A DNA stretch of 4,989 nucleotides from a virus. Taxonomy: Duplodnaviria > Heunggongvirae > Uroviricota > Caudoviricetes. This document shows, in pieces, positions 3,001 through 4,989 of this stretch. The DNA lies in the IMG/VR virus record IMGVR_UViG_2537561713_000001. One strand, given 5' to 3'. Position numbers: made by a program. Within the stretch, counting starts at the first letter, position 1. The number at the start of each line of letters is the position of its first letter.

Positions 3001-4989
3001 CCTCTCCCCCAAATAAAAAGGCCTGCGATTACCAGCAGGCCTTTATCTTTTTTTAACACGCTTTCGAGTCCTTTTATATTTTTCCTTAAGATATTCCGCA
3101 AGTTTATCCTCATCATTATTAAATTGAGATAAAAGCTCATGCTCGCAATTAAGTGCTTTACTCGCATAAGTTCCATATAGTTTCTTTCTTGCTAGTGCTG
3201 CTATGAATGCTGCATCTTCTTTGCTATCGAAATACCCTAACGATATTGTCTTATTTTTATAACCAACATAAGACTTCCACCTGCCAGTTGGCTTATACCA
3301 AGACACTCCAATTGCACCGGATGTGTTTAATCTATTCCCTACAATGTTTCTTGCATTCTGCTCTTCTGTTGCCAGTCTTAGGTTTGAAATCCTATTATCA
3401 AGTCTGTTCCCATTTACATGATCAATAAACTTAGGAGGCCATTTTTTGTATACATAGAACCAAGCAAGTCTATGCGCCTTATACAAAACATTATTTATAC
3501 TAATGCATATATAACCACCACTAACACCTCCAGCAATACTACCTTTTACTCTTACTACTGAATTTGTTTTTAGCCATTTAAATATTCCTGTTTCTGAGTC
3601 ATATGATAATGTTGACAGAAGCTCATCGTGATCAATTAGTTTTTTTATTCGCATAAAGAATATACTTAATAATATATACAGTAAGAACCATTAGTAACGA
3701 TAACCCTGCTATTAGCTCAGTGATGTAGATGGTCATACGTCAGCCCCTTGTGCATATCGTCTGCCACGCGCAGCAGGTGCATTTGATGCTGTGCAAATCT
3801 GTCTGGCTTCATCCTGGTCACATGCAACAAAGTGTCCGTTACAGAACCGCTGGTAAACTGTACCAAGCGAGCCAAAACGGTTTTTCGTCACGATGATTTC
3901 AGCAAATGGCGCGGCGCTACTGTTCTCATCATATACCGCTTCCCGATAGAGCATGATGATTGAGTCTGCGTCCTGTTCAATGCTTCCTGAATCACGCAAA
4001 TCTGCGTTTGTCGGGCGTTTGTTTGGTCGCTTCTCAACATCGCGCGAAAGCTGACTCAGGGAGATAACCGGTGTTTTCAGGTCTTTCGCCATCGCCTTCA
4101 GGCTTCCGGAGATGTGAGCAATTGCGAGGTCGTTGCGGTCTGCTTTCGGCTTCTCAATCAGGCCAAGATAATCCGCCATGATGAGTGACAGGTTTGGATT
4201 TTCCTGCTTATGCCGTTCTGCGATTGAGCGTATTTCTTCGACCGATAACCGCGAAGCATCGACTACCCATACATCCAAATCTGCAAGCTGACTCATGCCG
4301 TTAGCAACACGTGCCCAGCCCTCGTCATCCATCGATGCAGGATTTCGCAGTACGCTAACCGACATCCTCCCGGCGTTGGCAATGCTTCGCTCTGCAATCT
4401 GCAATGCGCTCATTTCCATTGAGAAAATCAATACCCCGCGCCGGACGTCAGAACCAGGAATAACGCGGCTTGCCACACCTTCGGCAATCTTCAGCGCCAG
4501 TTCGGTTTTCCCCATACCAGGACGAGCGGCGATAATCACCAGGTCTTCTGCGTTCATCCCTCCAGTGATAGCGTCAAGCTCTTCGATTCCGGTCTTCAGG
4601 GTATCTGACTCTTCTCCGTTCCTCAGACGCCTGTCAAGCGTGTCAGTGTAGTCAGTGATGATTTCCCCTAACCGTACAGGTTTAACCTCGTCACGGGGCT
4701 TTCTGATGGCTGAAAGACGCTTTACAAGTTCATCCATCGCCTGACTCGATGCGTCGATGGTTCCGCTTTGGATTGGTTCACGCATTTCATCCATGATTTC
4801 CAGCACCAGACGGCGGTGATAGTTATCCGCGACCATTCCGGCATATCCCTTCAGGTTTGCGGCACTCGGGCAGTTTTTGCTGGTCATCAGGATTGACGTG
4901 AAATGCTCCTTGAACCGCCCCGGTTTTCCTGGAGAGTGTTTTATCTGTGAACTCAGGCTGCCAGATCATCGTTTCCGATGGAAGCATAA

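Follow-up and report, generated by a model that had tools for sequence, protein, structure and literature searches.

We analyzed a stretch of 4,989 nucleotides (hereafter the window) from a virus of the class Caudoviricetes, IMG/VR virus record IMGVR_UViG_2537561713_000001, in which a gene for a 203-residue (aa) endonuclease with HNH_3 and AP2 domains lies between a replicative helicase gene and the nin region. The gene sits in a 665-bp AT-rich insert that interrupts the small gene ninA. We consider it probable that this is a freestanding HNH(HNN)-AP2 homing endonuclease gene (HEG) inserted in a conserved linker of about 78 bp, ninA-tR2, which its product would also target; in lambdoid phages, this linker forms the boundary between the replication module and the nin region. 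A freestanding HEG had already been proposed from a reading of this sequence alone (the sequence-only reading), and on comparative grounds that proposal fits a single fixed insertion site, many flank contexts, and purifying selection on the protein.

An AT-rich insert in the ninA-tR2 linker

Comparison with insert-free relatives, which the sequence-only reading had suggested, defined the junctions, and the insertion point falls within sequence that these relatives conserve. The empty-site references were phage Nil2 (AJ413274, L001), which has the same helicase (99.5% identity) and no HNH gene, and OR844603 (L160), a near-isogenic empty site that matches on both sides at 95-96%. In blastn alignments to both, window positions 2996-3046 and 3705-4910 are contiguous in the empty sites, with an overlap of 8 nucleotides (nt). 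All window genes are on the minus strand, in the order helicase, 34-codon open reading frame (ORF), 203-aa ORF, hairpin, nin region. The features at the insert are as follows.

3040-3704, minus strand: insert proper, 665 bp, 33.6% GC, placed by blastn against the empty sites of Nil2 and OR844603
3705-3736, minus strand: resident 5′ part of ninA, ATGACCATCTACATCACTGAGCTAATAGCAGG, placed by junction alignments; the upstream homology arm common to empty sites
3632-3736, minus strand: hybrid small ORF ninA′, 34 aa; codons 1 to ~10 are resident ninA and the remainder is insert sequence
3043-3654, minus strand: HNH-AP2 endonuclease ORF, 203 aa, from ORF calling, Pfam, phrog_99, alignment, and structure
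3017-3044, minus strand: tR2 intrinsic terminator hairpin, assigned to the phage backbone from record annotations, a hairpin scan, and folding
3002-3039, minus strand: resident 3′ arm, comprising the distal hairpin half, the U-tract, and a G-rich run (CCTGCTGGTAATCGCAGGCCTTTTTATTTGGGGGAGAG)

The insert limits are ambiguous by a 3-bp AGG, so that 3043-3707 is an equivalent placement. On the gene strand, the empty site reads ...GAGCTAATAACAGG|CCTGCTGGTAATCGCAGGCCTTTTTATTTGGGGGAGAG... (OR844603 has T as the first base past the junction), and the window reads ...GAGCTAATAGCAGG-GTTATCG...(insert)...AAAAAGATAAAGG-CCTGCTGG..., which places the insertion at about codon 11 of the 25-codon ninA, at the foot of the tR2 stem. 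The 3′ arm includes the 3′ end of ninA, which is no longer translated; farther out, the flanks belong to several unrelated classes. The full 78-bp empty site, on the gene strand, is ATGACCATCTACATCACTGAGCTAATAACAGGCCTGCTGGTAATCGCAGGCCTTTTTATTTGGGGGAGAGGGAAG, and this conserved stretch, split by the insert, is a candidate recognition site.

An imperfect 8-nt repeat stands at the two insert junctions (ATAGCAGG / ATAA-AGG), and a repeat search found no inverted or direct repeats bounding 3040-3707. The resident ninA arm carries one A-to-G change 4 nt from the junction (ATAACAGG in empty sites, ATAGCAGG in the window); in an IMG/VR sample of 120 ninA sites, 87 read ...CTAATAACAGGCCTGCTGG, and G occurs in only one empty site. 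A transposon or insertion sequence (IS) identity was rejected, as there are no terminal repeats or target-site duplication, there is no transposase, and the sole ORF is the HNH-AP2 gene.

The compositional drop over the nuclease gene, first estimated by hand as about 30 against 47-50% GC, is borne out by the 33.6% of the insert (34.2% in the ORF) against 48.9% in the rest of the window, a deviation of about 8 binomial standard deviations by our own arithmetic from these figures. It is sharp on the helicase side (52.0% in the helicase gene) and softer on the nin side (42.4% over 2247-3012), and GC content at third codon positions is 24% in the ORF versus 39-62% in neighboring genes. The interval originally assigned to the cassette, 3011-3732, contains the whole insert (3040/3043-3704/3707) and also takes in the resident tR2 and the 5′ end of ninA.

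At its upstream end, the HNH gene starts within ninA′, which overlaps it by 23 nt in a different frame, is annotated as HK022_56 in HK022, and matches phrog_5907 weakly over residues 1-12. No Shine-Dalgarno sequence precedes the HNH ATG, and because of this and the ninA′ overlap, translation of the nuclease is probably weak or coupled.

The hairpin is a resident terminator

The hairpin at 3017-3044 has a 10-pair stem (AAAGGCCTGC/GCAGGCCTTT, 6 G-C) and a loop of 8, is terminator-like on both strands, and has a folding energy of -18 to -18.8 kcal/mol (z = -6.0 on the plus strand and -2.3 on the minus strand). Its stem overlaps the TAA stop of the HNH ORF (3043-3045). The sequence-only reading described the gene as ending directly in a bidirectional terminator with a perfect 8-bp stem; the strong hairpin is indeed there, with 10 pairs in the window, but it does not belong to the cassette. 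In empty sites, the stem measures 8 bp (AGGCCTGC/GCAGGCCT), and the 3′ end of the insert supplies only three extra A-T pairs and a plus-strand T-run, which corresponds to its own Lys codons. It is because of these additions that the hairpin looks bidirectional. Record annotations agree, with a "tR2 terminator" marked within the 25-codon ninA of HNH-free Nil2 and a "terminator" in phages L and 21. From these alignments and annotations, we conclude that the hairpin is the resident backbone tR2 and not part of the cassette.

At 11 of 120 empty ninA sites (IMG/VR loci L062, L066, L081, L086, L089, L095, L111, L135, L140, L142, and L154), the same ninA 5′ end is followed by another hairpin, GGGCTA-TTTACAC-AGTAGCCC, and a T-run. 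This second ninA class (…CAGGGGCTATTTACACAGTAGCCC…) was considered as another insert and rejected; it is a compensatory alternative allele of the tR2 hairpin. That a stem can be wholly replaced and yet still pair supports selection on the terminator structure rather than on the NinA peptide.

An HNH-AP2 nuclease with an intact catalytic core

The HNH_3 and AP2 domains noted at first reading were both recovered in the 203-aa ORF, by different routes. HNH_3 (PF13392, residues 58-102) scores 56.1 bits against a cutoff of 24.8, whereas AP2 (PF00847, residues 114-161) scores 28.7 bits (E 1.6e-6), under its cutoff of 33.3, and is recognized through its fold; many homologues bear a precomputed PF00847 match. 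The protein matches phrog_99, "HNH endonuclease," at 243.8 bits, and no NCBIfam model matches it. PADLOC returned a single, weak match, to "homing endonuclease," and no other defense-system model.

The AlphaFold model has a predicted local distance difference test score of 89. The protein comprises an N-terminal β domain, a ββα-metal core, an AP2 domain at about 110-163, and a basic, lineage-specific C-terminal helix at about 165-203. In Foldseek searches, with E values of ~1e-2 overall, the N-terminal half matches I-HmuI (Protein Data Bank (PDB) 1u3e) with probability 1.0 over 106 columns, a root mean square deviation (RMSD) of 3.8 Å, and an E value of only 1.2e-2. Residues ~110-165 match the AP2 domain of AtERF1 (1gcc; template modeling score 0.70 on the target, RMSD 2.1 Å, probability 1.0), and the AP2 domain of TEM1 (7et4/7et5) was also matched with probability 1.0. 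The AP2 region of the model contains strands at 117-120, 125-132, and 135-142 and a helix at 145-163. The model thus supports an AP2 fold despite the sub-threshold Pfam score.

Alignment of the catalytic residues, a check called for at the outset, found them intact. In a 36-sequence alignment, HRLAW 61-65, D78, H79, N87, N91-L-R, N100, and N103 are invariant, and the DH...N...N pattern aligns with I-HmuI; the core residues of the ββα-metal fold are HRLAW 61-65, D78 H79, N87, N91, and N100. The HNH core is, by this alignment, I-HmuI-like and apparently functional.

In the protein database, the E. coli cluster to which the protein belongs (521 members) is isolated, the next proteins being at most 50% identical, bar one 62% chimera. 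This chimeric nuclease gene lies at 3919-4516 of locus L159 (Logan contig SRR10380363_203, protein P0004). Its first 279 nt, covering the ninA 5′ end and HNH codons 1-65, are 100% identical to the window and are followed by a different HNH-AP2 C-terminal part. The breakpoint falls inside the invariant HRLAWF box; tR2 is missing, and RusA comes directly after. This arrangement suggests that HNH-AP2 genes may swap domains at a conserved motif.

Distribution of the insert and of the empty site

The insert was found in 20 phage records, all of E. coli phages, at 98.9-100% identity. The intact 78-bp site occurs in 374 phage records, among them lambda, phage 21, HK phages, P22-like Salmonella phages, and most Shiga toxin (Stx) phages. 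Among 5,426 complete E. coli genomes, 126 carry the insert, at 138 places and 97.6-100% identity, some with two or three copies. The intact site is present in 1,890 E. coli genomes, with 2,910 matching places (partial matches at occupied sites included) and up to eight places per genome. The insert occupies about 5% of sites, and a scan of one genome per species found no close relative outside E. coli. This presence/absence polymorphism agrees with the view, taken from the first, of a horizontally acquired insert between the helicase and nin genes. The insert is rare and its distribution patchy.

One site, many contexts, and selection on the protein

All 35 insert copies for which flanks were read (the window, four GenBank phages, 29 IMG/VR loci, and one E. 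coli genome contig) share a single position in ninA-tR2, and no other cargo was seen there among the 120 sampled ninA sites. Homology among the copies starts exactly at the ninA ATG and stops 0-12 nt past the G-run after tR2; the arms common to all contexts are ~30 nt (the ninA 5′ end) and ~40 nt (tR2 and the G-run). When 500-bp flanks were clustered at 95% identity over 400 bp, the 29 fully flanked full-length copies fell into 8 upstream and 15 downstream classes in 18 combinations (the upstream classes number 9 if the truncated copy L035 is counted). Alleles identical across all 612 nt are found with up to four upstream and four downstream flank classes. Identical alleles adjoin at least five unrelated upstream genes. 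Among the genes on that side are two mutually unrelated DnaB-type helicases, one 933W-type and one P22-gp12-type (HK022), lambda ren in two variants plus a distant relative, a toprim primase, and an 89-aa ORF. The same downstream flank classes are seen with and without the insert.

The ORF is intact in 33 of the 34 full-length copies, and the intact ones represent 9 alleles. Their 18 polymorphic sites divide into 9 synonymous and 9 non-synonymous changes, with 130 synonymous and 479 non-synonymous sites available, giving a ratio of non-synonymous to synonymous polymorphism (pN/pS) of 0.27 (one-sided binomial p = 0.007). No catalytic residue is polymorphic. The ratio and the intact ORFs indicate selection on the protein.

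The sole broken copy among the 34, L029 (IMG/VR 648276659_000002), has an A7 run extended to A8 in HNH codons 4-6, which either shifts the reading frame or reflects a sequencing error in the homopolymer. A NinA′-HNH fusion created by this A8 was considered and rejected, the translation being a plain frameshift. A degraded copy in E. coli O114:H49 90-9280 (L162, NZ_CP024240 1556823-1559252) has IS100 immediately upstream, and its gene is broken in two, an "AP2 domain-containing protein" and a truncated HNH pseudogene. Degraded copies are as expected from the life cycle of HEGs.

In O157-type phages, two IS elements have inserted independently within ~25 bp just upstream of the HNH ORF, and both sever the gene from the early operon. 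ISEc8 meets the 5′ junction of the insert exactly, at about window position 3705, in L004/L012 (phage 1717 and an IMG/VR contig). The second, presumably IS629-like, ends ~20 nt further in, at about window position 3684, in L008/L011. This pair could reflect chance, a preference for AT-rich targets, or selection to silence the nuclease.

A homing model and its alternatives

The HNH gene precedes tR2, is oriented like O/P, and has no promoter of its own, a layout that suggests transcription as part of the early-right (pR) operon in lytic growth and silence in the lysogen. By analogy with its family, the protein would bind the intact ninA-tR2 of a co-infecting or co-induced gene-free phage, its AP2 domain touching the GC-rich arms of the hairpin and its I-HmuI-like HNH core nicking or cutting near ATAACAGG|CCTGCTGG. 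The break would be repaired from the gene-bearing genome by Red/Erf/RecT, NinB/Orf, and RusA/NinG, copying the 665-bp insert, and the carrier would be immune because the insert splits the site. Since the common arms are so short, either short-homology phage recombinases would perform the repair or transfer would occur mostly between phages that share longer flanks.

Homing is favored by a precise presence/absence polymorphism with near-isogenic empty sites and by a target stretch that is strongly conserved where its flanks are not. Several points weigh against it. Ordinary recombination within the conserved linker, a module boundary in any case, could also produce the many contexts with no contribution from the nuclease. 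Freestanding HEGs often cut away from their own gene, and the target need not coincide with the insertion site. The insert was found in no Salmonella phage record, though Salmonella phages account for 85 of the 398 phage records that match the ninA-tR2 query, at 94-100% identity among the matches listed. A frequency of ~5% fits the HEG cycle and fits a mildly costly passenger equally well. Finally, our search of the literature on HK022, Stx phages, and ninA with HNH found no study that maps or assays this gene.

A bolder version of the homing model, which we regard as doubtful, is that the nuclease homes into the 78-bp linker and that its breaks seed recombination at the replication/nin boundary, driving lambdoid mosaicism. 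The linker is one of few stretches conserved at 95-100% among lambdoid phages with otherwise unrelated replication and nin modules. If this version is true, homology of ~30 + ~40 nt would suffice, which is in the range of Red-type recombineering; a selfish nuclease would actively drive mosaicism in Stx-converting and other lambdoid phages; and this would be a natural HEG whose target is a transcription terminator and not an essential coding sequence. Were the linker really cut, homing in temperate phages would gain a simple system in which it can be tested, and recombination at a conserved module junction of Shiga toxin phages a candidate mechanism.

The alternative that survives best, which we nevertheless think unlikely, is that the gene is a passive passenger: it would have entered ninA once by illegitimate recombination and then moved by ordinary homologous recombination through the arms or longer flanks, its nuclease perhaps active, yet neither targeting the site nor driving its own spread. 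Insert-free phages are mosaic at the ninA-tR2 linker too, with downstream classes common to both, and linkage predicts the same context pattern as homing does. The low frequency, the absence from Salmonella phage records although the site occurs there, and a junction microhomology of only 3-8 nt would also suit such a history. What counts against it is the evidence for selection on the protein (pN/pS and the 33 of 34 intact ORFs), since a useless gene in a compact phage genome should decay, and the restriction of one nuclease lineage to one single site, which is typical of HEGs.

A use in competition seems to us improbable; here the nuclease would be retained for the advantage it gives its phage, cutting the DNA of competing lambdoid phages during co-infection or co-induction (partial or marker exclusion), and conversion of the insert would be a mere by-product. 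Its biochemistry would be identical to that of homing, and expected expression with the early replication genes, upstream of tR2, would serve it, and purifying selection fits it; moreover, E. coli O157 and similar strains house many lambdoid prophages side by side whose sites are empty, at up to eight places per genome. However, a clear advantage should push the frequency past ~5%, the two IS insertions just upstream of the ORF in O157 prophages speak against a strong benefit there, and no defense-system model other than the weak "homing endonuclease" was matched.

A moron is an autonomous promoter-gene-terminator unit, and it is very improbable that the insert is one, as the sequence-only reading had also offered, or that it encodes an AP2-type regulator modulating termination at tR2: the composition is AT-rich as is typical of morons and the AP2 DNA-binding domain adjoins a terminator, but no sigma-70-like promoter was found on the minus (coding) strand in 2600-4000 (three such sites there are all on the plus strand, a count no higher than in shuffles), the terminator is the tR2 resident in the 374 HNH-free phage records, and fully conserved catalytic HNH residues argue against a pure DNA-binding role. 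An HNH packaging cofactor of the HK97 gp74 type was ruled out, given the position in the early-right operon and the presence in only ~5% of related phages. Such HNH proteins are encoded beside the terminase genes and are universal in their phage group (Kala et al. 2014, as cited in PMC12315714).

Neighboring genes and other features of the window

On either side of the insert and its arms lie the following genes.

3733-4887, minus strand: DnaB-type replicative helicase (933W/Nil2-type gene P analogue); DnaB_C 262 bits, 99.5% identical to the Nil2 p gene
2890-2994, minus strand: first nin-region ORF after tR2, 34 aa from an ATG at 2994, phrog_21123

The TGA stop of the helicase and the ninA start share ATGA, and in empty sites the phrog_21123 ORF is likewise coupled to ninA via ATGA. 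The nin region contains this small ORF, two DUF7301 paralogues (2581-2802 and 1899-2114), a Lar-like protein, NinB, and Dam methylase. The Lar-like restriction-alleviation ORF and the NinB ORF (1652-2095 and 1249-1797, minus strand) overlap by ~145 nt as listed; their true starts are probably internal, and the NinB Pfam match starts at residue 35.

Several O157:H7 Stx phages (phi330, Stx2a_WGPS4, and SH2026Stx1) match the window at 100% identity over 2800-3900. A second mosaic difference from Nil2 (L001) is a 564-bp segment, 2432-2995, in place of which Nil2 has ~90 bp; it spans the 5′ part of a 118-aa ORF, one DUF7301 paralogue, and the phrog_21123 ORF. An Rfam scan found no match in the insert interval. 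Its only matches in the window, both at gathering score on the minus strand, are the Hfq-binding small RNA isrK (433-509, 74.7 bits) and C4 antisense RNA (324-407, 66.7 bits), which sit within 324-509, downstream of the Dam methylase gene and away from the insert.

Comparison with known systems

The gene itself is already known. Deposited sequences are 100% identical to it, and HNH-AP2 freestanding endonucleases are a described class. Identical sequences are annotated as "endonuclease" or "HNH endonuclease" (O157:H7 Stx phages, RefSeq) and as "homing endonuclease" (PA28), and the HK022 protein NP_597900 is a "putative endonuclease," as quoted in a note of the phage 1717 record. What we add is the exact map, a 665-bp insert in ninA at the foot of tR2, with the terminator reassigned to the backbone, together with population numbers and the pattern of one fixed site in many flank contexts. 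The presumed target, a terminator/mini-ORF linker at a module junction and not an essential gene, is mildly unusual. As it stands, the finding matters little.

Lambdoid morons (Juhala et al. 2000, as cited in PMC2629481) share the arrangement of an AT-rich extra gene between two backbone genes. Unlike them, the insert lacks its own promoter and terminator, and because it is embedded in the early operon, expression from the prophage is not expected.

I-HmuI of Bacillus phage SPO1 (PDB 1u3e) resembles the protein in its N-terminal β domain and its ββα-metal core with the DH...N...N pattern. In contrast, it is an intron-encoded nicking enzyme with a C-terminal helix-turn-helix instead of AP2, and the similarity is marginal (E 0.23).

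The seg and mob genes of T4 are freestanding intergenic HEGs that cause marker exclusion. Like them, the gene described here is intergenic, has no intron or intein, and is polymorphic for presence and absence; it would likewise spread by break repair in mixed infection. The T4 genes differ in belonging to other nuclease families or having other DNA-binding modules and in residing in virulent phages, and what they cut usually lies in a neighboring essential gene, whereas the flanking genes here are variable. T4 is also named as the paradigm in PMC10448857.

The closest parallels are the HNH/HNN-AP2 proteins described as freestanding HEGs in phages (PMC2248197, PMC10448857). Their carriers are the Xanthomonas phages Xp10, OP1, and Xop411, T5, RB-type phages, and Vibrio phage ICP1 ("IPA-HNH"), and PMC10448857 refers to Magnani et al. 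2004 on HNH-AP2 HEGs and on the GC preference of AP2. The window protein shares with them the same two domains, the boxes HRLAW, WP, DH, DNR, NLR, and xN, and the lack of a Cys-dyad zinc site, and the gene shares their form of a freestanding ORF between genes with a patchy distribution and degraded copies. Its site differs, being a non-essential terminator/mini-ORF linker and not an essential gene. The HNN-AP2 genes of Xanthomonas phages have no conserved flanking sequence and vary in position (PMC2248197), whereas in the temperate lambdoid phages considered here, every examined copy lies at one defined site.

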